Numbered from the stretch's first letter, positions 7,281 through 63,900 are shown. The stretch: 64,000 bases of DNA from a virus (IMGVR_UViG_3300044630_001234); one strand, 5' to 3'. Notes: generated by a model not told the origin, from the letters alone. Program-made: numbers and translations.

Positions 7281-8285
7281 TTATTTGATCTGAGACCAGA
7301 CACGCTCACGGATCTGTTTTGTCAAACTGTCCGGTAATGCTACATAGTCTAAGTCTGCGGCATCTTTCTTGCCATTCTTAAATGCCCAATCAAAGAACTT
7401 TAGCACTTCGTCACTGTTGGCCTTGTTGGCAGGGTTCTTGTACATGATAATGAAACTGGCAGAACTTACTGGCCAGGCATTAGGATTCTTTTGATCCACA
7501 ATACTCAATCCCATTCCAGGCACACTGAACCAATCAGCGCCATCTGCGGCTGCGGCAAATGTTAGGTCATCTGGTGACACATACTTGCCTGATCGGTTTT
7601 GTAGTTGTAGAAATACCATATTGTTTTTCTTAACATAGGCATACTCTACATAACCGATACTACCTTTAATTCTATTCACATTGGCAGCAACACCTTCATT
7701 GCCTTTGCCACCGACTGAATTTGGTGAAGGCCATTTAACTGCCGCACCACGACCTACTCGGCTCAACCACTCGGGGCTAACTGTAGCAAGATAGTCTGTC
7801 CAGTTGAATGTTGTACCACTACCATCAGCACGATGTACAATGGTGATGTTTTCGTTAGGCAGGTTCTTGCCTGGATTCAATGCTGTTAATTTAGGGTCAT
7901 TCCACTTAGAGATATTACCCATAAACACTTCAGCCATTACTGGGCCGGTGATACGTAGTTCGCCCGGTTTGAAGCCATCTAAGTTCACTACAGGAACTGT
8001 TCCGCCGATGATAGCAGGGAATTGAACTTGACCATTCTTGTCTAAGTTTTCTCCGCTGACAGGTGCGTCAGTTGCTCCAAAGTCCACAGTCTTGGCATTG
8101 ATTTGACGAATGCCGCCGGATGACCCGATGCTCTGATAGTTCATACCGGTGCCTGTGGCTTTTTTGTAGCCTTCAGCCCACTTGGCATAGATTGGGAATG
8201 GGAAGGTGGCACCTGCACCTGTGATGTCTGCGGCTTGTACTGATACTGCCACCGCGGCAAATAAAATAGCAAATAATTTTTTCAC
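7281..8285 (-). CDS. pstS: phosphate ABC transporter periplasmic phosphate-binding protein PstS
   Basis: GTG start after an AAGGAG site gives the signal peptide MKKLFAILFAAVAVSVQA. The mature protein DITGAGATFPFPIYAKWAEGYKKATG...SIGSSGGIRQI is a canonical PstS. Confidence 0.85.
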   Translation of the reverse strand: MKKLFAILFAAVAVSVQAADITGAGATFPFPIYAKWAEGYKKATGTGMNYQSIGSSGGIRQINAKTVDFGATDAPVSGENLDKNGQVQFPAIIGGTVPVVNLDGFKPGELRITGPVMAEVFMGNISKWNDPKLTALNPGKNLPNENITIVHRADGSGTTFNWTDYLATVSPEWLSRVGRGAAVKWPSPNSVGGKGNEGVAANVNRIKGSIGYVEYAYVKKNNMVFLQLQNRSGKYVSPDDLTFAAAADGADWFSVPGMGLSIVDQKNPNAWPVSSASFIIMYKNPANKANSDEVLKFFDWAFKNGKKDAADLDYVALPDSLTKQIRERVWSQIK

Positions 8286-8365
8286 TGTAAGTCTCCTTGT
8301 GTTAGTGATATTAATATTTAAACACAAAATGATTACAGTATGATTACAATTTTAAGAAATTTTAG

Positions 8366-18998: not shown

Positions 18999-19084
18999 AG
19001 AACCTCCTAATGTGTATGTCTATGTTATCAGTATATAACAAAACTGGTTTTATTGCAACCGATAATTTTACCAAAAGAAAACCC

Positions 19085-19445
19085 GCCGAAGCGGGTCTGG
19101 TTGTTTCTGTTACGAGGTATTTCCTACCCTAAGCGGTGTTTAGGCCGCTAAGGCAAAATGTGAGTCATTTGCAGTTACTTTTTTTGCTTCTTCGACCGGG
19201 TTACCCCAATCCTACGGGTTCTGCTTTCCCGAGCTGTCCACTCTGTTACTCTTTGCCCTGTCGAAACTATGCAGGCCCATTATAAAACACACTACGAACT
19301 CATCCTGCTGAATTTTCCGCTGTTCTCAACTAGATTCATCAGTTTTCGAGGCTGACCGCACCCTAGTATCTAATGTGTTTTATGGTGGACCTGGGGGGAT
19401 TCGCACCCCCGTCCAGAACACTTTTCTCTTTGCTTCATACAGCAA
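19085..19445 (-). ncRNA. ssrA: tmRNA (SsrA), circularly permuted two-piece type. The acceptor piece lies upstream of the coding piece. Tag reading frame GCA AAT GAC TCA CAT TTT GCC TTA GCG GCC TAA encodes (A)ANDSHFALAA.
   Basis: On the minus strand the T-arm and 3' acceptor GGACGGGGGTGCGAATCCCCCCAGGTCCACCA occupy ~19383-19414. The partner 5' acceptor strand GGGCCUG-CAUAG-UUUCGACAGGG (G3:U70 Ala determinant, UUCGAC motif) lies ~105 nt downstream at ~19278. The intervening segment is bracketed by the inverted repeat UAAAACACA / UGUGUUUUAU. The tag ORF at 19140-19172 is preceded by GCAAAAAAAGUAACU (compare E. coli GCAAAAAAUAGUC-GCA). A terminator hairpin GACCCGCuucgGCGGGUUUUCUUUUGG lies at ~19081-19105. 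Confidence 0.8.
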
Positions 19446-19455
19446 TAACTTATAT

Positions 19456-19782
19456 TTACACTCTAAAACTTTCTCCGCACCCGCATTTATCACGTTCATT
19501 AGGATTGCGAAATTCAAATCCTTCATTGAGTCCATTACGAGCCCAATCAACATTAAGTCCCTGTAAGTATGCAAGTGACTTTGCATCAACTAGTACTACA
19601 AAATCTGGTTGAGCAAAATTAGTAACTCCCTCTTCGGCAATGTAGCTGTCAACATATTCTAACGTATATGCAAGTCCGCTACATCCTGTAGTTTTTACAC
19701 CTAGCCGTATACCAATACCCTTGCCGCGTTTGGACAGGAGTTGTAGGATTTTCTTATTGGCTGTGTCGGTTACGGTAATCAT
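19456..19782 (-). CDS. iscA: Fe-S cluster insertion protein IscA/HesB family
   Basis: GIRLGVKTTGCSGLAYTLEY and the C-terminal NPNERDKCGCGESF give the three conserved Cys of A-type carriers. Confidence 0.8.
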   Translation of the reverse strand: MITVTDTANKKILQLLSKRGKGIGIRLGVKTTGCSGLAYTLEYVDSYIAEEGVTNFAQPDFVVLVDAKSLAYLQGLNVDWARNGLNEGFEFRNPNERDKCGCGESFRV

Positions 19783-20140
19783 TCACAGCCGCCTTGATAG
19801 CATCTTCTGCTAGAATTGAACAATGTATCTTTACTGGCGGTAGGGCTAGCTCTTCGGCGATTTCGGAGTTTTTAATTGATCCGGCTTCGTCAAGTGTTTT
19901 TCCCTTGACCCATTCTGTAATGAGGCTCGAACTCGCAATAGCCGATCCGCAGCCATACGTTTTAAATTTTGCATCTGTAATAATACCTGTATCATGATCA
20001 ACCTTTATCTGTAGTTTCATTACATCACCACAAGCAGGAGCACCGACCATGCCAGTACCAATGTTATCATCATCTTTTCCAAACGATCCGACATTGCGCG
20101 GGTTTTCGTAATGGTCAATAACCTTGTCTGAGTAGGCCAT
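19754..20140 (-). CDS. iscU: Fe-S cluster assembly scaffold IscU/NifU-like
   Basis: MAYSDKVIDHYENPRNVGSF, GAPACGDVMKLQIKV, TYGCGSAIASSS and the LPPVKIHCSILAEDAIKAA motif. Canonical IscU. Confidence 0.85.
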   Translation of the reverse strand: MAYSDKVIDHYENPRNVGSFGKDDDNIGTGMVGAPACGDVMKLQIKVDHDTGIITDAKFKTYGCGSAIASSSLITEWVKGKTLDEAGSIKNSEIAEELALPPVKIHCSILAEDAIKAAVNDYRNRHSQ

Positions 20141-40329: not shown

Positions 40330-43300
40330 TTAGAACCAATATGCTGATAGTACAGTTGCACCGTCTGTACCGGTTCCTGCTACAAAAAAGTTTTCTGAAC
40401 CTATTAAACTATTGGTAATAGATCTAGAACCTGCTGTAGCAGCACTTAAATTCTGGAAAGCAAATATCTTTAATTGAACAGCATCATTGGTTATAGTATC
40501 AACTGTTACTATTTGATCGACTCTATCAATACCGATGCTTTCTGGATAAGGCATTCTATTAGTATATACGTGTGATCCTTCTCTATTGTATGAGGATCCA
40601 CCAATTGTTGAACTCTTAACAGTTGCAGTTGCTACTGCAATTACAGCAGTAACTGCACCGGCGTTTGTAGCTGGAAATGCTCGACCGCTGCCCCAGATAA
40701 TACGCACGGCACCGACACCGCCCCAACCACCACCGTAGCTGGTACCAGATCCGCCGCCACCGCCACCAAATGCACCACCGTTAATGATACGTAGACCGCT
40801 TTGTCCCGAACCTTCGCCACCACGGCCTTGTTCGCCACCTGAACCACCGCCGCCGCCGAAATAACTAGAACTTCCAACACCATCCGCGCCTTTTCCAAAT
40901 ATGCCAACACCGCCGCCTGCAGGTACACCATATGTACTTGAATAATAACCAGATGCTGCACCAGCGCCTGATCCTGCTGGTGGATTGTAGGCCGTAAAAT
41001 AACCTCCGGCATTATCAGCACCCTGGCCGGCATATCCGCCTGCGCCAGCGCCGCCCCTATTCCAAGATCCTTCAAATGCTCCATTACCGCCACGTCCACC
41101 GCCATCTCCTAAGAAGCCGCCGCCGTAGCCGCCACCGAATGAGGTAGCACCAGGGCCGCCGCGTCCACCACCATAACCTGCTACTGTAGCAGTTGAGATA
41201 AAGTAACTGGTACCGCCTAGGTTCGTTGATAGGTTACTTGCGTTGCTAGTTGATTCACCACCTTGACCAACTACAACAGTATATGATACTCCGGGAGTAA
41301 CTGGAATGTTATTCTTCCAACCTAGGCCACCACCACCACCGCCACCAGAACTCCAAACATGGCCACCACCGCCTCCGCCGCCTACGGCTACAACACTTAC
41401 TGATGTAACTCCGCTTGGTGCTGTCCACGAATATGTACCTGTAGTAACATAAGTCGCATCACCCGCTGTTGGATAGGATCCAGTGCCACCTGTTGGAACC
41501 ACTCCGCTGATTACACCTAACTTAGGAGTTGATGTTCCTGTAGAATAGCAGGTAATTTGATTAATGCTGCCAATAGCCGACACAACAACAGTATTTCCAT
41601 CGCCGCCATTACCGCCTGATACACTAGAGGTTGTGATAGTTACTATTGATCCGGCAGTATAGTTACTAGTACCTTTAAGGCCAATAACTGTAAATGACCA
41701 AGATGCAGTTGTTATAGTCGATATAGAACTAATTGTAGGATCTAACTCAAGTTCACCAGTTGAGTAAATTGAATTAATCGCTCCTGGAGTAGGAGCTACG
41801 CTACCATATGCTAAACAGCTAATACTATAACTGCTGGTATTAACCACAGTAATATATACAATATTTCCTTGCCCAAGATTACCAACTCTAGCCTGTGCAG
41901 AAAGAATATCTTTAGTAGCAAATCCAACTGTTGAACTCAGTCCTGTTATATCAAATATCCAAGGACCCGAACCTATTACAGTTCCAATGGTACCTACTGC
42001 GCCTGAATCTACACCTATCGAGATCGATGCGCTAAATGTTGCTCTAGTAGTGGTTGTAATAATCTTTGCATTATCAGCAGTTCTAACATAATTGCCAAGG
42101 TGTCCAGCAGCGTTGACTGATACAGTAGCCGCTTGCTGGCCGCCGTACAAGAATCCTTGATATTCAGGAATAACCCATCTAGACTTACCATAGGCTACTG
42201 TAGTATCTCTGGTATAACTACCTACAGGTTCTGTTGCCTGATTACCAATTAGATTTCCTTCGGCGTATGGACTATTAGCTGTAATAGTAACTATCATCGA
42301 GTCATTACCATTATCACTAGGCAGAGCACTAAATCTTTGTCTAATAACCGGAGTTTCAGATGCATTTGCACCTGCAATTAATACAGATGCTGCTGGTCCT
42401 GATCTAGCACCGAAGCCGGTATAGATTGTACTAGTTGATATTGGTGCGTAATTAATAATTGGTAATGCAACTCCGGTTGAATAATCTGTCCCTAGCCATT
42501 CAGATTTCTTAATTCTAATATTACTAAAGCCGCCAAAGGTACTGTTTACAGAATAAAAACTACTATCGAAGTAAACTGTCTGACCTGTTCCTTTAAACAC
42601 TGAATAGAGTAACTTGCTACCGTTATAATGTTTAATGTAACCATCGGTGGTATAAACAATGTAAAACTTATTAGCTGGATTCCAAGATCCACCTTGGTCA
42701 CCTAAATTTGAACCGTTATGATGAATATTGAAATTGTTAGACTGGTACGGATATGCAGCCCAGTCTATGGTATCATAACTTGCATTAGCAGTTGGGTCAG
42801 CGTTCCAACCTATCATGGCATAGCTAGCACCGTTATCTGTGGCTGCTGCTTGCTTATAGAATTCCATGGTAACAGGTGCTGTAAATCCCGTTGAAATATA
42901 TGCTTGATTATCCCAGTTAATTGATCCTGAAGTTTTAAAAACAGTTACGTCAGTGGTTCCGTTATTTGTTACTGTTAAGTTCCCGGACGCAACTAACGTT
43001 ATTGTTTCGTAGGGAACAGTTACAGTCGAGAAGGACATTACTGCACCAGTTGTAGATACAGTTCCTATTCTACCAGAAGTTGCAGTAGCAGTTGATAAAC
43101 AAGTGATCTGTTCGCTGTTAAGCACCGACGTTACATACACTGTAGCTGTGCCTAGACTACCTACCATGTTAGTAGCAGTGATAATTGACCCATATATAAA
43201 TGCATTAGTGGATGTTAGGCCGGATATAGTAAATGTATATGGTGCTATTGTAGTTATAGGTGTAAATGGATTTATCACTGATACTACAGCAGAGGTCTGT

Positions 43301-46300
43301 GTTATCGTATTATTGTAAGACGAATTATCAATAAACGATGTACTTTGGCAAGTTAATAAAACTGTGTATGTACCTGTTGAAATAGGTGCAATATTTGTAC
43401 CACTGATTTGTGTTGTAGCCAAAGTAGATGTGGTAGGTGTAAAATTACCGGTGTAAACTGCCAGGCCTTTTACCAGTCTAAAATTAGATAGGTAGCCGTT
43501 AAAATATTCTGAATATCCTCTGGCGTTACCAATTAAAAATGGCTCTGTATTATCTGCACCCATTGAAATAGCCACTGAATACACCAATGAACCGTTTACA
43601 TATATGTTTAATGTAGAACCAGTGTAGACCCATGCACAGTGACTCCATACTCCTGCAGTTAATGTATAGCTTGAATTGTATTCAGTTCCATTATAAAAAC
43701 TGATAACACCTGTGCTGATTCTTAAAAAACCCTCATACGATGTAGTGCCAGAACTAGTAACACGTTTACAAAAGATAGCACGATATGCAGAGTAATCACC
43801 GTCTGGTCTAATCCAGCACTCTGCTGTCCATGCTAGGTTGTTTAAATTAAAATTAGTAGAGTGAGCAATCTGTAGGAAACTAGTTGATCCATTAAAACTG
43901 ACACTGTAGGAACTAGTATTAGTTAGAGTCGATACGCCAGTTACTGGTCCGATATAATTTCCGATGTCTGGACCGGCGGAATAAATTCCAACAATAGTAC
44001 CAGTGGTCGGTGCTAAGGTTCCATTTTGAGCTATACAGGTTATGGACGTACTACTATTAACCTCAGTTACTATTACAGTGTTACCACCGAAACTTCCACC
44101 TAATGGTGTTGATCGTACAATAGTACCTGTGGTAAATTGTGCAGTTGACCTTAGTTGTTGAATGGTCAGTGTCCAAGGATTTGTTCCGGATACTGAAGTA
44201 ATTAATCCTGGGGTGGTATCTGATGTTACTGATAAGATGTTGGTCAACGTGCCAACATTATAATCTCTAATAGTAGCACTAGATACTGAAACTACACTTA
44301 CAAACGCTGATTGCACTCCGAAGTATTTGTTTTCTAATGGAGTTGGTATTGTTACACCAGAAGATGACCCACTTGCAATTCCAGCTGTGTATATTTCTAA
44401 GATTTGAGCGGCTGTTAATTCACCGCTTATAACTTGTATTGCATCTAAGGCAGTCGGAGCTTCAGTACCTGCATACGGGTAACCGTTGCCTATGTAACTT
44501 GTTCCAGGATAACTTGAGTTAACAGCTATGTTAGTTAGTTCCTTAACTCCGTTAACGTATGCATCCACCTGATAATTTGATTTAACTACCCAAGCTAGGC
44601 AGAACCAATTATTTGTGTTTACTAAAGTTGTTCCAACGTTTTGTGTTGCATTGGCTACACAAATTTTTCCTGAGCTAATTCCCAGACCCCAGTATATGCT
44701 GTTTGCAGGATCACTGAAAATAGGCACACTAGGAGAATATGATCCGCCGCTGGCAGTTTGAGTTCCTTTGTACCATGCTACATAAGTCTTACTCCAATTA
44801 CTGGCCACTGTGGTTAATTCGTTGATTCTTAGATAATTACTGGCCATGTTCCAACCAGTAGCGTGTCCGGTATTTTGAACACCGCCTGTAGTAGGGAATG
44901 TTAAACTACCGGTTGTAGTCAATGAATAGGAGCCTGATATAGTAATTGCACCACCGTTGAATTGAATACCTAATAATTTCGTAGCACCAGGCGGAGTTAA
45001 AAGTTCATTTCCGAGTGAAACACCACTGTAACTAGAACCGGTATACGCCTGTACTGTACCGGCCCATACTAGACGTACAAATCCGTTACCACCGGAGCTG
45101 GCTAGGCCAGTTCCACCATCCCAAGAACCACCACCACCACCGCCAGGAAATCCACCTTCTCCACCCCGCGATCCTGCTGAAGATAATCCGTTGCCTGCAC
45201 CGCCGTTAGTGCTAGAAACTATAGGAGTATAGGTAGCAGATCCACCACCACCGCCACCTGTTACGTTATTTTGTCCAGCACCGCCAGCACCACCACTATA
45301 TCCACTATTAGAACCTCCTGTGCCTGCTGAGAAACTTGCGGCACCGCCACCACCAGCGCCAGCGCCCCCATTAAACCCAGATTGATATAAAGTACCGCTA
45401 GGACTGTATGAAGTACTACCGTTTCCGCCCGCACCTCCCAAACCACCTGCGCCGCCACCACCACCACCTCCGTCCCAACCAGCGCCGCCTGGGCCACCGG
45501 CGTAACCCCCAGTGGTTACCCCGCCTGGAGTATTAGCAAAACTAGGAGCAGCAGGTGCCGGAGCACCTGGATTAGTGCTGTAAGGCGTACCACCGATACC
45601 ACCGGGGACAGTCATAGTGAATGAGCCAAACGCAACTGAGCTCAATCCACCATCTGGTGCTTTTGTATTTTTTGTCGCAGTGGCTATTCCGCCTAATCCA
45701 ACAACTATGGTAAGAGTTTGACCCGGAGTCACTGATAGGTTATTGAAGAATCCAGCCGATCCACCAGAGCCACCACCGCCACCACCGTCACCGCTGTTTC
45801 CGTCATCACCTGCGCCACCTGCGCCAACTGCCATTACTGATAATGTAGTTGCATTTGAAGGAACAATGAATGTATATGTTCCAGGCGCAGTATAATTTTG
45901 ATCAGTTTCTACTGGCACTGGTGGCGTATATGTTCCGCCGGGGACACTGATAGAGTCGATCAATCCCGCAGTTGGAGCAAGGCTGCCGATTCCACCATAG
46001 GCTACAGCAATAATGCTAGTAGGGCTAGTAACTGTAGATACAGTTACCGTACTTCCTACGCCAAAACTTCCAAGTTTACCCGAACTGGTTGTTGCTGTTA
46101 TTATCGAAGTAGCTGTTAACGAAGATACAGTACTAGATGAAATATTGTAAATTCTAAAGATCCAAGAAGAACTTGTAATTGGAGTAACTCTGTAAACAAA
46201 GGTTCCTGTTGTGCTAGGATTAATTTCGGAATTGACTTGAGTTGATATACTAGTGCTAGTTGATGAAGTTGTATAAAATTTAGTAAATGCTAGAGTACCA

Positions 46301-49300
46301 GTGTTGAATAATCTAGCAGGCGAGTATCCGTAGGTTTCTGATGGTACATTGACTCTGAGAAAATACCCAGTTTGTAGTATACTCTTTCTTTCTAAGGTTA
46401 ATCTTCTGGTGTCATAGACCACGCTACCCGTAATGTTAGGAACGTGATTTTGCTGGAATAATTTTGGAGAATTTTTAATACTCGGAGATCTAAGATCATA
46501 AGACGGGCCGCCAACTGTTGAACTCTTAGTAAATGGAGTTACAACGGCTGCAACAGCACCAGTTATTTCAGTAACATTACTAGTTGGGAATGCTCTACCT
46601 GTACCCCAAATAATACGTACAGCTCCTTGGCCGCCCCACCCACCACCATAGCTGGTACCAGAGCCACCGCCACCGCCACCGTATTTTCCGCCATTGATTG
46701 TCTTAAAACCGCTTTGTCCCGAACCTTCGCCACCACGGCCTTGTTCGCCACCCGAACCACCAAATCCACCATAGAATTGTCCGCTAGCGCCACCACTCGA
46801 TCCTTGACCATATATACCTACACCGCCGCCTGCTGGTACGCCATATGTACTTGAATACCAGCCACCTGTACCGCCGCCGCCGCCTGCAGGAGCGGCATTA
46901 CCACTGCTACTACCACCATATGAGTCTGCGCCACGGCCTGTATATCCTCCAGCACCAGCTCCACCGTAATTCCATGATCCGTCAAAGGCACCATTACCAC
47001 CTCGTCCACCACCATCACCTTGATAGCCACCACCATAGCCACCACCAAACGAAGTAGCATTGGGGCCACCGCGCCCTCCGCCGTATCCTGCTACTGTAGC
47101 AGTTGAGATAAAGTAACTGGTACCACCTAGGTTTGTGCTATTGTTATTTGCATTAGCAGTCGATTCGCCACCTGATCCTACTACAACGGTATAGGTCTGA
47201 CCAGGTGTAACTGAGATGTTGTTTTTCCATCCCAAACCACCGCCACCACCGCCACCTGAACTCCAAGTGCTGCCGCCACCACCACCGCCACCTACTGCTA
47301 CAACACTCACTGATGTAACTCCTGCTGGAGCGACCCATGAATATGTACCTGTGGTAATATAAGTTGCATCGCCAGGCTGTGCCGGTAATGAACCTGTAAG
47401 CCCTGTTAGATACGGTCCAACTATTGTTCCTGCAATTGGAGTAGTTGTTCCCGTAACATAACAGATAATTTGTGTATTGTTAAGAATAGATTTAACTAGT
47501 ACTGTATTTCCTAGACCAAAACTACCTGTTACTGATGTAGCGGTAACTACAGCAGCCACAGATAGATAGCCAGTGCCCTTAATACCTATTACATTAAATT
47601 CCCACGATGTTGTTGATGTAGCTGTAACTGAAGTAATTGTAGTGTCAGGTATAATTTCGCCAGTGGCGTATATCGCATTAAGTATTCCAGTAGTAGGAGC
47701 TACAGATCCGCCAAATGCAGAAACTGTAATCGATGAAGTTCCAGTATTGGTAACATATACAACATTTCCTGTACCTAGTGTAGCAGATCTCTCAACTACA
47801 GAAATTACAGATTTAGAAGGTAATTCAAGACTTGACGACATTCCAGTAATTGTAAATGTCCAGGGTCCGACTAATGGTGTTCTAAACGTTGGTAATGATG
47901 TACCGGCTGACGCAGAAAATGTAAATGTTACTCCTGTAGCAGTGAAAGTGTGTATAGTATAAGTACCGGCTGTGGTTACAGTTCCGCCCTGACATCTCTG
48001 TGAGCCAGGATATCTAACAATAACAATACCACTGCCGCCAGAGCCTGATCCACTAGACCAACCACCGTTCGCAGCCCAGTAACTTCCACCACCACCGCCG
48101 CCCCCTGTGCCTGCAATAGCGTTAGGTGTTCCGCTACCTGTAGTAGTAGCATTAACTTCGTTGGTATATACGTTATAATTGTAGTAGGTTGTAGTACCAG
48201 CACCGCGTCCGCCGCCTGCAAATCCATCACCTGCTCGTTCACTACTGTTACCACCGCCACCGCCCCCGCCTGCATACCATCGCCATGTGCCAGAGATATC
48301 AAATGCTTTACCAGCGCCACCATTACCGCCTGGTGCTGAACCTGATCCATTTACACCTGCACCACCAGCTCCACCACCACCAGCTCCTGTCCATGTATAG
48401 CCAGTTGTACCACCAGCATTACCATAGGCGGCCGCGCCATTTACACTAGTTTGAGTAGCTGAACCACCACCGTTTTGATAAGCGGAACCTCCGCCTGAAC
48501 CACCGTTCATTTTGCCGCCGTCAAACCCCTGTCCAGTACTTCCGCCGCCACCGCCACCTTGTGCAATATAAGTTCCAAAAGAAGAGTTTCCGCCCTTGTT
48601 GCCGTTGGCGTTTGTTGAGTTAGCAATAGCAACACCACCTGCGCCTACTATAACATCATATGCACTAGATAATGTTACACCAGTAGCATAAAGAACTCCG
48701 CCGCCGCCACCGCCACCGTTACCGTTTGTGGTATTATTGTTACCACCCGATCCGCCACCCGCAACAACTAAAATATCGGCAACAATAGACTGTACAGGGG
48801 GAGGAGTATAAGTGCCACCTGTAGGTGTAATACCGAGAATTGATCCATTGGTGGGAGCAACAGTGGCTGTATTAGCCACTGCAATAATACTGGTACTATT
48901 AGTCACAGTATAAACATAGACTGTGCCGTCACCAAAACTTCCAAAACTGCTTGAATTTGTATTGGCAGAGATTATTGTGCCAAACGTTAGGCCAGATGTC
49001 TGTGTTGAGGATAGTTGCTCAATGGCAAATGCATAAGTTGCTGTGGTTATCAGTTCCACTCCGTAGATATTGGCATTAAGATATACTGGATTAGTAACAG
49101 TATTAATAATTCCAACTCCTGCACCATCACGATTAACAGGAATACTGATTGAATTAGTGCCTGTTGTGAATAACTTTGTCGAAGTTGAATATCCGTAGAC
49201 CGTCGACGGAGTTTGGATACGTTGATAATTAAACGAATTGTTTAATGTAATTATCGTAGCTGAAGTTAATAGGCGTGTAGTTGGATATGCAATGACCAGT

Positions 49301-49485
49301 GGAGTAATAAAACTATTATAGTTTACGCCATCCACTGGTCTATTGCCAAACTCGTAGGCACGCCCATTGGGATAGTATTGTCTGGCATACTCCCCTCTTA
49401 CATTGTACTGAGCAATTACAGTAACCGAAGCTCCAACAACTGTGGTGTTGAAGTTCTTTTTAGATCCGTCAATTACTTGCGGCAT
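40330..49485 (-). CDS. giant glycine-rich structural (fibre/fibril) protein, 3051 aa, with a LamG/ConA-like lectin domain and an internal tandem duplication
   Basis: Single uninterrupted ORF. Poly-Gly tracts (GGGGGGGS...). LamG-like segment (ECWIRPDG...VWSHCAWVYTGSTLNIYVNGSLV...GNARGYSEYFNGYLSNFRLV). Two ~560-aa near-identical blocks (...TGTYSWVAPAGVTSVSVVAVGGGGGGG... / ...TGTYSWTAPSGVTSVSVVAVGGGGGGG...). Confidence 0.7.
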   Translation of the reverse strand: MPQVIDGSKKNFNTTVVGASVTVIAQYNVRGEYARQYYPNGRAYEFGNRPVDGVNYNSFITPLVIAYPTTRLLTSATIITLNNSFNYQRIQTPSTVYGYSTSTKLFTTGTNSISIPVNRDGAGVGIINTVTNPVYLNANIYGVELITTATYAFAIEQLSSTQTSGLTFGTIISANTNSSSFGSFGDGTVYVYTVTNSTSIIAVANTATVAPTNGSILGITPTGGTYTPPPVQSIVADILVVAGGGSGGNNNTTNGNGGGGGGGVLYATGVTLSSAYDVIVGAGGVAIANSTNANGNKGGNSSFGTYIAQGGGGGGSTGQGFDGGKMNGGSGGGSAYQNGGGSATQTSVNGAAAYGNAGGTTGYTWTGAGGGGAGGAGVNGSGSAPGGNGGAGKAFDISGTWRWYAGGGGGGGNSSERAGDGFAGGGRGAGTTTYYNYNVYTNEVNATTTGSGTPNAIAGTGGGGGGGSYWAANGGWSSGSGSGGSGIVIVRYPGSQRCQGGTVTTAGTYTIHTFTATGVTFTFSASAGTSLPTFRTPLVGPWTFTITGMSSSLELPSKSVISVVERSATLGTGNVVYVTNTGTSSITVSAFGGSVAPTTGILNAIYATGEIIPDTTITSVTATSTTSWEFNVIGIKGTGYLSVAAVVTATSVTGSFGLGNTVLVKSILNNTQIICYVTGTTTPIAGTIVGPYLTGLTGSLPAQPGDATYITTGTYSWVAPAGVTSVSVVAVGGGGGGGSTWSSGGGGGGGLGWKNNISVTPGQTYTVVVGSGGESTANANNNSTNLGGTSYFISTATVAGYGGGRGGPNATSFGGGYGGGYQGDGGGRGGNGAFDGSWNYGGAGAGGYTGRGADSYGGSSSGNAAPAGGGGGTGGWYSSTYGVPAGGGVGIYGQGSSGGASGQFYGGFGGSGGEQGRGGEGSGQSGFKTINGGKYGGGGGGSGTSYGGGWGGQGAVRIIWGTGRAFPTSNVTEITGAVAAVVTPFTKSSTVGGPSYDLRSPSIKNSPKLFQQNHVPNITGSVVYDTRRLTLERKSILQTGYFLRVNVPSETYGYSPARLFNTGTLAFTKFYTTSSTSTSISTQVNSEINPSTTGTFVYRVTPITSSSWIFRIYNISSSTVSSLTATSIITATTSSGKLGSFGVGSTVTVSTVTSPTSIIAVAYGGIGSLAPTAGLIDSISVPGGTYTPPVPVETDQNYTAPGTYTFIVPSNATTLSVMAVGAGGAGDDGNSGDGGGGGGSGGSAGFFNNLSVTPGQTLTIVVGLGGIATATKNTKAPDGGLSSVAFGSFTMTVPGGIGGTPYSTNPGAPAPAAPSFANTPGGVTTGGYAGGPGGAGWDGGGGGGGAGGLGGAGGNGSTSYSPSGTLYQSGFNGGAGAGGGGAASFSAGTGGSNSGYSGGAGGAGQNNVTGGGGGGSATYTPIVSSTNGGAGNGLSSAGSRGGEGGFPGGGGGGSWDGGTGLASSGGNGFVRLVWAGTVQAYTGSSYSGVSLGNELLTPPGATKLLGIQFNGGAITISGSYSLTTTGSLTFPTTGGVQNTGHATGWNMASNYLRINELTTVASNWSKTYVAWYKGTQTASGGSYSPSVPIFSDPANSIYWGLGISSGKICVANATQNVGTTLVNTNNWFCLAWVVKSNYQVDAYVNGVKELTNIAVNSSYPGTSYIGNGYPYAGTEAPTALDAIQVISGELTAAQILEIYTAGIASGSSSGVTIPTPLENKYFGVQSAFVSVVSVSSATIRDYNVGTLTNILSVTSDTTPGLITSVSGTNPWTLTIQQLRSTAQFTTGTIVRSTPLGGSFGGNTVIVTEVNSSTSITCIAQNGTLAPTTGTIVGIYSAGPDIGNYIGPVTGVSTLTNTSSYSVSFNGSTSFLQIAHSTNFNLNNLAWTAECWIRPDGDYSAYRAIFCKRVTSSGTTSYEGFLRISTGVISFYNGTEYNSSYTLTAGVWSHCAWVYTGSTLNIYVNGSLVYSVAISMGADNTEPFLIGNARGYSEYFNGYLSNFRLVKGLAVYTGNFTPTTSTLATTQISGTNIAPISTGTYTVLLTCQSTSFIDNSSYNNTITQTSAVVSVINPFTPITTIAPYTFTISGLTSTNAFIYGSIITATNMVGSLGTATVYVTSVLNSEQITCLSTATATSGRIGTVSTTGAVMSFSTVTVPYETITLVASGNLTVTNNGTTDVTVFKTSGSINWDNQAYISTGFTAPVTMEFYKQAAATDNGASYAMIGWNADPTANASYDTIDWAAYPYQSNNFNIHHNGSNLGDQGGSWNPANKFYIVYTTDGYIKHYNGSKLLYSVFKGTGQTVYFDSSFYSVNSTFGGFSNIRIKKSEWLGTDYSTGVALPIINYAPISTSTIYTGFGARSGPAASVLIAGANASETPVIRQRFSALPSDNGNDSMIVTITANSPYAEGNLIGNQATEPVGSYTRDTTVAYGKSRWVIPEYQGFLYGGQQAATVSVNAAGHLGNYVRTADNAKIITTTTRATFSASISIGVDSGAVGTIGTVIGSGPWIFDITGLSSTVGFATKDILSAQARVGNLGQGNIVYITVVNTSSYSISCLAYGSVAPTPGAINSIYSTGELELDPTISSISTITTASWSFTVIGLKGTSNYTAGSIVTITTSSVSGGNGGDGNTVVVSAIGSINQITCYSTGTSTPKLGVISGVVPTGGTGSYPTAGDATYVTTGTYSWTAPSGVTSVSVVAVGGGGGGGHVWSSGGGGGGGLGWKNNIPVTPGVSYTVVVGQGGESTSNASNLSTNLGGTSYFISTATVAGYGGGRGGPGATSFGGGYGGGFLGDGGGRGGNGAFEGSWNRGGAGAGGYAGQGADNAGGYFTAYNPPAGSGAGAASGYYSSTYGVPAGGGVGIFGKGADGVGSSSYFGGGGGSGGEQGRGGEGSGQSGLRIINGGAFGGGGGGSGTSYGGGWGGVGAVRIIWGSGRAFPATNAGAVTAVIAVATATVKSSTIGGSSYNREGSHVYTNRMPYPESIGIDRVDQIVTVDTITNDAVQLKIFAFQNLSAATAGSRSITNSLIGSENFFVAGTGTDGATVLSAYWF
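40605..42285. repeat. intragenic tandem-duplication copy 2 (approx.)
   Basis: Protein-level and shadow-ORF similarity to 46530-48210 (offset ~5.93 kb). Confidence 0.5.
46530..48210. repeat. intragenic tandem-duplication copy 1 (approx.)
   Basis: See copy 2. Minus-strand shadow ORFs 46563..47069 and 40641..41105 share ...VVQVANKAVVAKVRDKAV.... Confidence 0.5.
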
Positions 49486-57965: not shown

Positions 57966-60900
57966 TTATATGACTACGCCGCCACCGTCTATTGGCTCAA
58001 TTCCACCGTAAATAGTGTTGGGAATTCCGCCATCTAAATTAGGACTGCCTCCCGAGCCACCGCTACCTCCCCCACTTCCGGAAAAGCCTGCGCCCGCACT
58101 ACCTGTATAACCACGAATTTGACCCACATCTAACCAAGTAGGATTTATCCAAACGTGTAAGTGGCCGTCATTTGATGTTAGATATCCGTCTCCTGTTGTT
58201 CCATTATATGGATTTGGAAGTCCTGCGGCCGACCCTACAAACCCAACAATATTTAATCCGTTACCAGGAGCACCTTGACTACCTGTAAATCCCGAACCTG
58301 CCGAGCCTGTATAACCCTGCGGAATACTGAAATTTAATACCGCATCGTATTCAGTGCCTGTGTTAGTTACTGTAGGGATTGAACCAGCGGTTCCAGTTGT
58401 TACAACACCAATTGTAATTGTAGAAGTACTACCACGACTACCTGCATAGCCTAATGCGGCTGCTTCACCTGGAATACCTTGACTACCTGTAAAACCTGTA
58501 GCACCTAGAGGTCCTACACTACCCGAATATCCTAAACTTCCTGAATATCCTAAACTACCACTAAAACCTATAGGTCCTCTAGACCCTGTGTATCCTATAA
58601 TACCCTGGAAGCCTTGTTGTCCTGCTGAACCTGTAAAACCTATAAAACCTTGTTCGCCTACAAAGCCAGTATCACCTTTACTACCTGTAAATCCAGTACT
58701 GCCGTCATATCCCTGGCTACCAGTAAAACCTATACTACCTGCAAATCCTCGACTTCCAGTGTAACCTTCACTACCTGCAAATCCAGAAAACCCTCGACTA
58801 CCAGTAAAGCCCGTAATACCAAAGCTACCCGTATAACCCGTTGATCCAAAGCTACCAGTAAAGCCTGTAACACCCTGAGATCCAACGTAGCCAGTATCCC
58901 CCTGACTACCAGTATAACCAATGACTCCCTGTGATCCAGTAAAGCCAATAACACCCTGACTGCCAGTAAATCCAACAGCACCTCTGCTACCTGCATAGCC
59001 TCTATCACCCTGGTCACCTGTTCTAGCAAAGGTAACAACAACAGTCATTCCATCTGTGAATGTACCCGATCCTGACAGATATGAAACAGGTACATGGAAA
59101 TGATTAGCTGATGGTATGCCTTCTTCAGTGTGAGATCCTGTTATAGCAAATAGGGCAAAATTACTAGGATCTGCTTTTTCTGCTATTGAGAAGTGACCTT
59201 TGATCTGCGAAGTAGAATCATCTATGGTCTGCAGATATGTATAAATTGATTCGCCTAGCTTATCATTAAAATTAATGTAGGCTACTGTAGTGCTTCCAGA
59301 AAAAGTTAACGTATCAAATTCAATCTCACCACCTAGTGGATCTGTGCCTATTACATCGGTGCTATACAGGAACTCAAAGGCTGCTCCACCGAATCCACCT
59401 TGTTCGCCCTTGCTACCAGTATATCCTAATACGCCTTGGCTACCTGTGTAACCTATGTCACCTTGTGATCCGGTATAACCTATTTCACCTTGACTGCCTG
59501 TGAAACCTATATCGCCTTTGCTACCTGTATATCCTAAACTACCAGTAAATCCAATATTACCCTGTGATCCAGTATAACCTATATCACCTTTACTACCAGT
59601 GTATCCAGCAAAACCTTCCGAACCAGCATCACCTTTCTCACCTTGACTACCAGTGTAACCCTGACTACCTGAGTAACCTTGGCTACCAGAATAGCCTTGG
59701 CTACCAGAATAGCCTTGACTTCCTGTCCATCCTTGAATACCCTGAATGCCTTGATCACCTTTGTCGCCTTTACTGCCAGTGTATCCTATATCACCTCGAC
59801 TACCAGCATACCCTTTTTTGTCTTGTATATTAATATAGCCGATCATTCCGCTATGGAATACACATTGATATACTATTTGATCCGGAGCATCATATGGTAC
59901 CCTATATGAAACAAGTATGTTTGTTGCATAATTTCCCGTGGACGGATTATTATTTTCCATTCCGGGCAAGTTATTAGTGTTTCCACTAGCGTATCTAAAT
60001 GCCAACGGATGTGAGCTAGTTATATTTTGTAAATCAAAGTATACTAAGTCACCTCTTACTATTGTAAGTGTAGGGTAATTACTAGAAAATCCGTCTACAG
60101 TGTAATTAAATGCTCCTGCAGGATTATTCATTATGAATAATTGACCGCCTTGGCTACCAACATAACCAACACTGCCTGTATATCCTTGACTACCTGAGTA
60201 ACCTATACTACCTGTGAATCCTAATCCGCCACGACTACCTGTAAATCCAAAACTTCCTATGAATCCGGTGTCACCTCGAGATCCTGTAAATCCTCGTGAA
60301 CCAGTAAAACCTAATGCTCCAGCTGCACCAGCAGTTCCTTGACTACCAGTGTAACCACGGCTACCACTAAAACCTGTAGCACCTTGGTCGCCTGTGTTAC
60401 CTGCACTACCTTGACTGCCCGCATAACCAGAACTACCTACAAATCCTGTTTCGCCCCGACTACCACTGTATCCAATTTCACCTTGACTACCTGTATAGCC
60501 GCCTGGATCACCTTGTGGACCTATACTACCTGTATAACCAACGCTACCAGTATAACCCAAGGCAGCGAATGCACCTGGAATACCTGCACTTCCAACAAAG
60601 CCTGTAAGACCTCGACTACCATTATAGCCCGCACTACCTGTAAAACCTGTAATACCTGCACTGCCAAGAAAACCTCTACTACCTGTAAAGCCTGGTGGAA
60701 CATCGGCGGAGATTGTTAGTTGTTTAGGAGCGGTGCCTGTATTGGTTGCTAATATAATATTGTTACCAGCAACTAATTTAATTGTATCTAGGCCTTGCGC
60801 TACTAATGTTTCTTGTCCATCTACTTCCCAATACTTGAAAGTAGAATTCATTCCGATCTTAACTGCACCTGCGCCTAGATCGGTGACATCAAATCCTGCA

Positions 60901-63900
60901 TCACTGTCGAATCTAATAGTGTCAATGTTTGTAATTACATTAGAAACTGTAGTAGCATCTATTAAACTAACAGTTAGTTTAGAGGAGCTACCTGTGTAAC
61001 CTGTCTCGCCTGGTGCGCCAGCACTACCAGTAAATCCTGCGCCTGCGGAGCCAGTAAATCCAGCTCCGGCACTACCTGTATAACCTATAGCTGCGGCTTC
61101 ACCAGGAAGACCTTGACTACCTGTAAAACCAGTATCACCACCGGATCCAGTGTAACCTGTATCACCATACGAACCTGCATAGCCAACTGAGCCTGTAAAT
61201 CCAGTAAAACCTGTAAGACCTCGACTACCAGCATAACCAACTGGTCCTTGGTCACCTTGGCTACCTGCATAACCTTCACTGCCGGTATAGCCCAGACTAC
61301 CAGTAAATCCTCTTGATCCAGAATAACCAACATCACCTCGACTACCTGTATAACCTAAGGCTGCAAATGCACCTGGGATACCTTGGCTTCCAACAAAACC
61401 AGTATCGCCTTTATCGCCTTTGTCGCCCTTACTACCTTGGAATCCGGTGTCACCTTTTGATCCAACAAATCCTGTAAATCCAGTATCACCTTTGCTACCA
61501 GTAAAGCCAACAACACCTTGGCTACCAACAAAACCTGTATCGCCTTTATCACCTTTACTACCAGTATATCCTAAACTGCCAGTAAAGCCAACAATGCCCT
61601 GTGAACCAGTATAACCCAAGGCAGCATATTCACCTGCAATACCTTGACTACCGGTATAACCTAGACTACCTGTATAACCAAGATCGCCTCGACTACCTAA
61701 GAAGCCCTGATCGCCTTTGTCACCTTGACTACCAGTGTAACCAATACTACCTGTATATCCTAAATCGCCTCGACTACCTTGGAATCCTCTTTCACCTTGG
61801 ATACCCTGACTACCTGTAAAGCCAAAATCACCCTGTGTACCTTGGATACCTTGGAAACCACGACTACCAGTAAAGCCAGTTTCGCCTTGACTACCTGCGA
61901 ATCCTAGGCTACCAGTAAAGCCAATAACACCCTGGCTACCTGTGTAACCTATGTCGCCTTGACTACCTGAATAACCTATTACACCTTGGCTTCCTGTGAA
62001 ACCTTGTTCGCCTTGAATACCCTGTTCACCCTGAACACCTTGTGATCCAGTATAGCCGCCTGCAGGTCCCGCTGGGCCTTCATCTCCTTTACTACCAGTG
62101 AATCCAGTATCACCCTGGAAACCTTGATCACCTTGTGTACCTAAGCTACCAGTGTAGCCTAATTCACCTATCTCGCCTTGATCACCTCGATCACCTTTAC
62201 TGCCAGTATATCCACGTGACCCTACAAAACCTAGAGCACCTGTGTCACCTTGGAAACCTCTACTACCAACAAACCCAGTGCTACCTACAAATCCCGAGAA
62301 TCCTCTTGATCCAGTAAAGCCAACATCACCTCTTGATCCTACAAACCCAACAAGGCCTCTACTACCTGTGTAGCCTTTGCCTTCTGTGAATAAAATGTAT
62401 CCATAGTTGTTGGGATTTACAATACTTTGATAGACTATGTAGTCTTGTATTAGAATAGGAATTTCTATGTATATTACTATACCGCTTATAGTTTCCTGAG
62501 AACCTGAAGGAAATCCAGGAACTATGTCTGTATCATTGCCCGGTTCTGTCCTAAAAGCAACTGCGTCACCACCAGTTATTGCAGTTAAGTCAAGATAATA
62601 ACTCTGGCCTCTAATGAATGTCAGTGTTGGATTTAATTCAGCGAATCCTGTTACGTTAAAATTAGCATTAACTGACATGAATTGGTATCGAGTGCCGCCT
62701 TGGCTACCACTGTAGCCAATGCTACCTGTAAATCCCTGAATACCTTGGCTACCAACAAAACCAGTACTGCCTGTAAATCCGGTGCTACCTGTATATCCCT
62801 GGCTTCCAGTGTAACCTTGGTCACCTTTGCTACCGGAGTAACCAAAGTCACCTTTGCTACCGGAGTAACCAAAGTCACCTTTGCTACCGGAGTAACCACT
62901 ATCTCCTTGGCTTCCTGTAAAACCAATAGCGTCATAAGCACCACGACTACCACTAAAACCAATAACACCTTGTGAGCCAGTAAATCCAGTTGATCCACTA
63001 TATCCAATTGAGCCAACAAAGCCCGCTGACCCTGTGTACCCTTGGCTTCCAGTAAATCCCTCACTACCTGAGTAACCTTCTGAACCAGTGAAACCTTCTG
63101 AACCAGTAAAACCTTTACTTCCTGAGTAGCCGCGACTACCAGTGTAACCCAACTCACCTTGTGAGCCGTCATACCCAGTTACACCAGCACTACCAGTATA
63201 ACCAACACTACCAGTATAGGCCCTGCTACCTGTAAAACCTGCAATACCCTGACTACCTACAAAGCCCGTACTACCTAAGAAACCTTGACTACCTGTATAA
63301 CCTTGACTACCTGTATATCCAAAATCACCTGCACTACCTACAAATCCAGTGTCGCCACGAGATCCTGCAAATCCTCTTGAACCTGTAAAACCTAGACTAC
63401 CAGTGTATCCTTTGCTACCAGTGTATCCTTTTCCCTGTGTTATTGTAGGTTGAATAACAGCTATAGTAAATGCAGCACTGGCAGTTTGTGGTACCTCATC
63501 TGTGGCTATAACAGTATATTCTGTAGCAGTAGTAACTGCTGTAGGTGTGCCTGTTATTTCACCAGTAACCGTGCTGAAAACTAATCCTGCAGGTAATTGA
63601 GTTGGTGATATAGCATAGGTGATAGTTCCAAAGCCGCCGCTAGCACTAATAGGTGTGAACTCAGTAGGAGTACTGATATCTAAACTGTATGCATTGTTGA
63701 CTGCTGTGACAATTAATGGGTCAGGAATAAAATCATTAACAGTTAAATCAAATGTACCTGTTTTACTATTACCATAAGCGTCAGTAGCGGTAACTGTGTA
63801 CACATCAGTTGTGGCAACAGCGGTAGGAGTCCCAGAAATTTCACCGTTACTTGGATTAAAAGTCAATCCACTGGGTAGTGCAGGACTTAACAAATAGGCT

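Follow-up and report, generated by a model that had tools for sequence, protein, structure and literature searches.

Does the minus strand of a 64,000-nucleotide stretch of viral DNA (IMGVR_UViG_3300044630_001234, called the window in the following) carry a genuine circularly permuted tmRNA gene, and does such a gene say anything about the host of the phage? Two-piece tmRNAs originated independently in Alphaproteobacteria, some Cyanobacteria and some Betaproteobacteria, according to three sources (PMC9004378, PMC11915505, PMC3978253); the original prediction had correctly named the alphaproteobacterial and cyanobacterial groups and had left out the betaproteobacterial lineage. Two-piece tmRNAs of phages have also been published before (Buchholz 2022; Al-Shayeb 2020). 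Buchholz et al. counted 53 of them among 402 tmRNA-bearing phage genomes (PMC9004378), tmRNAs as well as bS21 have been described for huge phages (PMC7162821), and a tmRNA database contains 11,946 permuted sequences and 79 phage sequences (PMC11915505).

In the whole 64-kb window, ARAGORN reports one RNA gene, a permuted tmRNA* on the minus strand (19049-19475) whose tag is ANDSHFALAA*, the asterisk being the program's mark for permuted genes. Independently, the Rfam model RF04321 (tmRNA_permuted) matches 19140-19444 on the same strand over the full model (1-213) with 111.4 bits and an E-value of 6.8e-21, its gathering threshold being 47 bits, and the two detectors are concordant. Each of the diagnostic tmRNA elements that had been predicted for this strand was located in the sequence, in the permuted order of acceptor piece, spacer and coding piece. 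The acceptor piece (19383-19444, minus strand) is supported by the RF04321 alignment, by ARAGORN and by the sequence, as well as by covariation of P2 with the coding piece in 79 distinct family sequences. It contains the 5' strands of P2 (GCUGU 19443-19439, UGU 19420-19418 and CUG 19416-19414), a T-arm GGGGG/UGCGAAU/CCCCC (19410-19394) with the loop UGCGAAU, the acceptor 3' strand CAGGUCC (19393-19387) and the discriminator A with an encoded CCA (ACCA, 19386-19383). After an intervening segment of 104 nt (19382-19279, minus strand) follows the coding piece (19070-19278, minus strand), defined by the sequence, the RF04321 and beta_tmRNA alignments and a terminator scan. It starts with the 5' acceptor strand GGGCCUG (19278-19272), which pairs with CAGGUCC into a 7-bp acceptor stem comprising G1-C72, G2-C71 and the expected alanine identity pair G3:U70, next to the discriminator A73, as in a tRNA-Ala-like domain.

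Directly 3' of GGGCCUG, the minus strand reads CAUAGUUUCGAC, the D-loop analogue (CAUAGUUUCGA, 19271-19261), and the 3' strands of P2 follow (CAG 19260-19258, GCA 19256-19254 and ACAGC 19237-19233), the two pieces pairing as GCUGU/ACAGC, UGU/GCA and CUG/CAG. P2 is succeeded by a hairpin CGGG/CCCG (19231-19215) and a second hairpin with a GUAA loop (19211-19194), which stand in the place of PK1, for which inspection of the stretch upstream of the resume codon found no convincing H-type pairing. Helix 5 (CUUAGCGG/CCGCUUAG, 19152-19129) carries the stop codon of the tag in its loop. The 3' end of the gene is formed by an intrinsic-terminator hairpin, AGACCCGC UUCG GCGGGUUU followed by a U run, which the terminator scan places at 19079-19098 (minus strand), in agreement with the predicted closing hairpin, and which aligns with the terminal hairpin of the beta_tmRNA model. 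As had also been noticed, the surroundings are phage-like, with genes for tail-fibre and baseplate proteins, nrdA/nrdB/grx, exonucleases, PstS, bS21 and ClpX nearby. Together, these observations support the reading of the locus as a genuine tmRNA gene, circularly permuted (two-piece), within a phage-like region.

The tag frame GCA AAU GAC UCA CAU UUU GCC UUA GCG GCC UAA (19172-19140, minus strand; ARAGORN) encodes ANDSHFALAA followed by a stop. Its resume codon, the alanine codon GCA at 19172-19170, is preceded by an A-rich stretch and UAACU, the resume context that the original prediction had described, and its C-terminus is hydrophobic and of the ALAA type; the frame opens with neither a start codon nor an SD. 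The tag had been given as AANDSHFALAA, of which the encoded ANDSHFALAA stands, while the additional leading A is the alanine carried by the charged tmRNA. Among 71 ten-residue tags of the family (among the matches listed), the peptide is conserved as A-N-D-S/E-x-F/Y-A-L-A-A and the codons vary synonymously: Ala9 is encoded by all four alanine codons (GCA/GCU/GCC/GCG), Leu8 by UUA/UUG/CUA and Ser4 by codons from both serine boxes (UCA/UCC/AGC/AGU). This pattern supports translation of the tag and selection on its peptide. Some family members have long tags of 27-31 residues (L011, L042, L051 and L052, on contigs of up to 347 kb, and L067 and L081), examples being ANVNKTVTVSGKNLKFSARSAKEALAV, with a terminal LAV in place of LAA, and ANADTFEFGALNFTGNTVRGAANEGRFALAA. 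A literature search with the tag strings returned no match.

Concerning the type of the tmRNA, the best model within clan CL00001 is beta_tmRNA (RF01850), which aligns end to end at 19076-19480 with 83.2 bits; the window copy thereby lies 0.8 bits under the RF01850 gathering score of 84 bits and just outside the curated family despite its full-length alignment. Scores above 84 bits are reached by the family members L123 (152 bits) and L124 (110.5 bits) and the tmRNA of Stenotrophomonas phage Mendera (92.1 bits). Alpha_tmRNA (RF01849) and cyano_tmRNA (RF01851) were dropped in clan competition as lower-scoring overlaps of beta_tmRNA. The window copy works like the beta type and is evidently related to beta_tmRNA, albeit just under the curated line.

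A megablast search of 50,697 phage records with the 20 kb surrounding the locus found no nucleotide match, so the window phage does not correspond to a known isolate. Judged by NrdA, the nearest isolates are the Xanthomonas phages X1 and BUDD (59-60% identity), followed by Ralstonia phage RSP15 and the Stenotrophomonas Mendera group (54-56% identity). In X1 and BUDD, a permuted tmRNA gene is located about 3 kb from nrdA (X1 L001 7977-8427; BUDD L002 7978-8429), with the tag VAANDADYSVARYA according to ARAGORN and about 77 bits for RF04321; in Mendera (Menderavirus), the distance to nrdA is about 600 nt (L130 11085-11458) and the tag is VAANDDSYTVRIAA. The window tmRNA lies upstream of grx-nrdB-nrdA in the direction of transcription, and the same relative position is found in X1, BUDD and Mendera. 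In their GenBank/RefSeq records, the tmRNAs of these three phages are without annotation, and in the BUDD record a hypothetical CDS (USV41083.1) is drawn over the tmRNA gene.

The Xanthomonas and Stenotrophomonas hosts of these phages have a one-piece tmRNA, and no permuted tmRNA is known from these groups. They also fall outside the lineages with permuted tmRNA reported in the literature (PMC9004378). A mismatch between phage tmRNA type and host has likewise been described for the phage Melnitz (Buchholz et al., PMC9004378). The suggestion that the gene points to SAR11, other alphaproteobacteria or marine cyanobacteria therefore does not hold, since the best clade model is beta_tmRNA and syntenic homologues reside in phages of Xanthomonas and Stenotrophomonas; the tmRNA type does not identify the host. 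Nor is a phage-borne permuted tmRNA unusual, as had been thought, given the share of two-piece forms among the phage tmRNAs surveyed (53/402, PMC9004378) and the abundance of the family in viral contigs described below. Table S1 of that survey (PMC9004378) gives 'Permuted' for three Stenotrophomonas phages, Mendera, Moby and YB07, which are among the closest NrdA relatives of the window.

An exact copy of the 28-nt T-arm/acceptor end GGGGGTGCGAATCCCCCCAGGTCCACCA is present in at least 120 viral contigs of IMG/VR; among the matches listed, 17 of these contigs are 100 kb or longer, the largest measuring 364 kb. By comparison, a collection of bacterial and archaeal genomes with one genome per species (185,579 species) contains the 28-mer in two short contigs only, and the cultured phages of the INPHARED collection do not contain it. 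The two contigs, about 20 kb each and binned into Bacteroidota MAGs, both encode a permuted tmRNA of the beta type and probably represent mis-binned phage DNA, although their PHROG annotation was uninformative. L124 also bears a cluster of tRNA genes. With at least 120 viral contigs set against two short MAG contigs, the lineage looks phage-resident.

A peculiarity of this lineage concerns the contact between T-loop and D-loop. Position 55 is almost always U in tRNA and tmRNA. The window T-loop UGCGAAU (19405-19399) has G at this position, and the D-loop analogue (19271-19261) has UAG instead of UGG. Across the loci compared (L003-L137, X1, BUDD and Mendera), relatives with the canonical UUCGAUU T-loop keep the GG of the D-loop whereas the G55 clade has UAG, the exception being one family member that combines GG with G55. 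The swap to A18/G55 may represent covariation of the G18:U55 tertiary contact; the change of T-loop position 55 from U to G and of the D-loop from GG to AG probably took place as a single evolutionary event, and the association is hence suggestive only.

Directly upstream of the tmRNA on the same strand lie iscU (19754-20140, minus strand; Pfam NifU_N, 184.9 bits) and iscA (19456-19782, minus strand; Pfam Fe-S_biosyn, 60 bits), the stop codon of iscA being 11 nt before the first modelled base of the tmRNA at 19444. The promoter scan revealed no recognisable sigma-70 promoter immediately 5' of the tmRNA; the closest promoter-like site (20179-20152) precedes iscU. Because of this arrangement, iscU, iscA and the tmRNA probably form one transcription unit. 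Close IscU homologues (92-99% identity) are all metagenomic, and the contigs inspected are phage-like, with a giant T4 gp9/10-like protein and sodB-iscU-iscA, and lack a tmRNA; an attempt to derive a host or donor from them was abandoned, as such contigs give no host clue. In L138-L143, which have sodB-iscU-iscA with an IscU 95% identical to that of the window, no tmRNA follows iscA, which makes the tmRNA an insertion of variable presence with respect to this module.

Further downstream, 3.3 kb from the tmRNA, clpX (14545-15777, minus strand) is recognised by its Pfam domains zf-C4_ClpX and AAA_2, next to the bS21 gene rpsU (14322-14558, minus strand; Ribosomal_S21 PF01165, 53.6 bits), whose start overlaps the clpX stop in a tight clpX-rpsU pair. 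An identical ClpX protein with the same neighbour was seen in several JGI metagenomes and one Logan assembly. IGF is the usual ClpP-docking motif of ClpX. The phage protein aligns with the ClpX chain of PDB 6vfs (E 2.9e-123), keeps the GYVG and RKH motifs and carries VGF where IGF would stand. If the analogy with the E. coli protein holds, ALAA-tagged substrates could be among its targets. The proximity of clpX to the tmRNA had been pointed out, but among the matches listed 1 of 122 family loci has ClpX within the flank covered. The idea of a tmRNA-ClpX module that is conserved was given up, as ClpX/bS21 recur in 1 of the 122 loci, IscU/IscA in 2 and NrdB in 17 (again among the matches listed). 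As the neighbourhoods differ in this way, the tmRNA is conserved to a far greater degree than the genes around it. Neither smpB nor clpP was found among the window ORFs tested, so the RNA would depend on host factors.

Other features of the window were recorded in passing. The region 8402-10341 (minus strand) holds the gene of a DUF2828/DUF7788 protein that may be Ro60/TROVE-like (phrog_850, 'RNA-binding protein'), and upstream of this gene are a perfect TTGACA-17-TATAAT promoter (10341-10313) and an ORF-free stretch of about 470 nt. This stretch, for which neither an Rfam match nor a fold signal (z = -0.64) was obtained, may be a long leader or a new ncRNA. The PstS-like phosphate-binding protein (phrog_5385, 7281-8327, minus strand) is typical of aquatic phages, and two giant ORFs, 40330-49485 (minus strand, 3051 aa) and 57966-63893 (minus strand, 1975 aa), lie among the tail-fibre genes.

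The G55/A18 clade, with its at least 120 uncultivated viral contigs, some above 300 kb (IMGVR_UViG_3300043570_001980, 3300027759_000045 and 3300031787_007614), could be taken as a phage-adapted lineage without bacterial or cultured counterpart that has properties distinct from those of host tmRNA and perhaps forms a module with ClpX and bS21. This broader reading is rather unlikely. If it were true, the altered T-loop/D-loop contact and the leader-trailer helix described below may change processing, modification by TruB/TrmA and competition for SmpB, and in phages like that of the window the tmRNA, ClpX and bS21 might work jointly as a semi-autonomous module for translation quality and takeover. 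Also improbable is a competitive role, in which the phage tmRNA would displace or outcompete the host tmRNA and take over trans-translation rather than merely add rescue capacity, and could thereby block a host response that depends on tmRNA or channel tagged proteins to the ClpX of the phage. Such a role would fit the zinc-finger domain and the GYVG and RKH loops of the phage ClpX, the presence of bS21, the unusual A18/G55 and the extreme conservation of the TLD across very different phage genomes, and there is a precedent in a phage TLD-only tmRNA that inhibits host tmRNA, cited in PMC11915505. However, the tag shows no phage-specific feature and corresponds to the canonical ANDxxFALAA degron, and clpX is not linked to the tmRNA in the relatives.

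Whether the gene is under selection at all can be judged from the family, a set of 123 sequences with the 28-mer (among the matches listed), of which about 80 distinct members were compared. The complete permuted order, with the 5' acceptor strand and the D-loop motif downstream of CCA, is present in 110 of the 123. In 79 distinct sequences, P2 changes in a compensatory manner from GCUGU/ACAGC to GUUGU/ACAAC and AUCGU/ACGAU; one pair occurs as CG in 56, UA in 14 and UG in 6 sequences, and another as UA in 69, AU in 3, CG in 3 and GC in 1. The hairpin after P2, counted by an anchored search, is present in all of 84 distinct sequences, in 13 different complementary versions of its stem.

The spacer tells the same story. 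In the minimum free energy (MFE) fold of the window, the trailer (19382-19370) pairs with the leader (about 19295-19283), UAAAACACAUUAG with CGUAGUGUGUUUUA, over 13 bp, with UAAU (19282-19279) opposite ACCA; the inverted repeat UAAAACACA/UGUGUUUUA corresponds to this leader-trailer helix, in line with the predicted segment of some 100 nt closed by an inverted repeat. In the family, the segment right after ACCA pairs with a segment ending 4 nt before G1. Among the matches listed, 74 distinct members pair on average at 8.69 of 9 positions, compared with 7.28 +/- 0.10 when the partners are shuffled (200 shuffles, maximum 7.61), and in these 74 cases each column shows 3-5 pair types, several of them Watson-Crick. 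The helix is also found in X1, BUDD and Mendera. Spacer length ranges from 25 to 491 nt across the 28-mer sequences among the matches listed; spacers of 342-491 nt, in L064, L122, L057, L082 and L017, have the same closing helix. The helix is thus shown by covariation to be conserved, which is indicative of a structured precursor, and together with the acceptor stem it might extend over about 20 bp, RNase III-like in size.

The covariation in the inter-piece helices, the hairpin and the leader-trailer helix, together with the synonymous variation of the tag, argues for selection on the RNA and points to a gene maintained as a two-piece tmRNA. A decaying copy of a bacterial ssrA carried along as a non-functional passenger, for example after imprecise excision of a prophage from an ssrA attachment site, would be conceivable given that ssrA is a common integration site and that ssrA fragments occur in prophages (PMC9004378). 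Yet the gene is intact in its two pieces as well as in the tag frame, helix 5 and terminator, the covariation and synonymous substitutions in about 80 distinct sequences amount to purifying selection, no integrase was found among the window ORFs tested and the sequence is essentially absent from bacterial genomes, which makes a passenger very improbable. That a one-piece tmRNA or a tRNA-Ala-like element was miscalled as permuted has next to no probability, as it could draw on the tRNA-like T-arm and acceptor end and nothing more, whereas no 5' acceptor strand, which had been named as the sign of a one-piece fold, lies upstream, the sole GGGYCUG that the minus strand offers near the locus lies 3' of the CCA end and so excludes a one-piece arrangement, ARAGORN finds no tRNA in the window and the permuted models align over their full length.

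The locus is therefore best regarded, with a high degree of confidence, as the functional two-piece, beta-like ssrA of an uncultivated phage akin to X1, BUDD and Mendera, belonging to a phage-resident lineage rather than to a recent capture from a host. On this reading, transcription, probably together with iscU-iscA, would run to the terminator at 19079. In the precursor, the trailer after CCA would pair with the leader before G1, as the covariation shows, to extend the acceptor stem and close a spacer of arbitrary length. By analogy with bacterial permuted tmRNAs, host RNase P would cut 5' of G1 and host nucleases would trim the 3' end to the encoded CCA; the 104-nt spacer would be discarded, leaving the acceptor and coding pieces held together by the covarying P2 helices. 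Host AlaRS would be expected to charge the RNA, because G3:U70, G2:C71 and A73 are present, and host SmpB and EF-Tu presumably deliver it to ribosomes stalled on broken mRNAs. Translation would resume at GCA and add (A)ANDSHFALAA, a step backed by the synonymous variation, and the ALAA-COOH end would target the product to ClpXP-type proteases, possibly including those with phage ClpX. The net benefit would be that ribosomes are kept free and amino acids recycled while the infection yields truncated mRNAs.

Viewed in this way, the window gene adds one more well-supported case of large aquatic phages with their own two-piece tmRNA. It stands for a very conserved phage-resident clade that is abundant in metagenomic viral contigs and absent from the cultured phages and essentially from the bacterial genomes that were searched. 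Because homologous beta-type copies occur in Xanthomonas and Stenotrophomonas phages, the form of a phage tmRNA, permuted or not and alpha, beta or cyano, is unfit as a host marker. Three details appear to be undescribed in the literature covered, namely the size and conservation of the clade, the covarying leader-trailer helix and the change of U55 to G with GG to AG. The helix and the A18/G55 swap offer handles on the processing of permuted precursors, which is poorly understood even in bacteria.

Among known systems, the E. coli tmRNA shares with the window gene the G3:U70 pair, a resume GCA after an A-rich stretch and UA(A/G)NN, an ANDxx(Y/F)ALAA degron and a stop codon in the loop of helix 5. 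It is a one-piece molecule with four pseudoknots, whereas the window RNA is in two pieces, lacks pseudoknots 2-4 and has PK1 replaced by or reduced to hairpins. The betaproteobacterial two-piece tmRNA, reportedly described by Sharkady and Williams in 2004, is another: beta_tmRNA agrees with the window gene in its permuted order, in the P2 pairing that joins the pieces, in having one hairpin after P2, in a tag of the ANDxxFALAA type and in a G+C hairpin at the end, and its model aligns end to end. In contrast to it, the window gene resides in phages, with an acceptor end that is essentially absent from 185,579 bacterial species genomes, has the T-loop UGCGAAU (G55) with UAG in the D-loop rather than UUCGA with GG, and belongs to a family with a long, variable spacer (25-491 nt) and a covarying closing helix. 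The marine myophages Melnitz, HTVC008M and Mosig, large lytic phages of aquatic bacteria, resemble the window in their phage-borne permuted ssrA and their translation-related genes, and here, too, the tmRNA type need not match the host (PMC9004378). Their tmRNAs differ in being of the alphaproteobacterial type, some with a glutamine riboswitch in the 3' domain (PMC9004378), whereas Rfam detected no riboswitch at the window tmRNA. X1, BUDD and Mendera are the closest cultured relatives. Their tmRNAs lie among phage tRNA genes, which are absent from the window, the tags (VAANDADYSVARYA, VAANDDSYTVRIAA) differ from that of the window and exceed it in length, the canonical UUCGAUU T-loop is combined with a GG D-loop and the blastn alignment is limited to the 84-85-nt acceptor region at about 77% identity; nevertheless, the gene is homologous and syntenic near nrdA-nrdB-grx (NrdA 54-60% identity), and it resembles the window gene in the leader-trailer helix with a UGAU spacer before G1.
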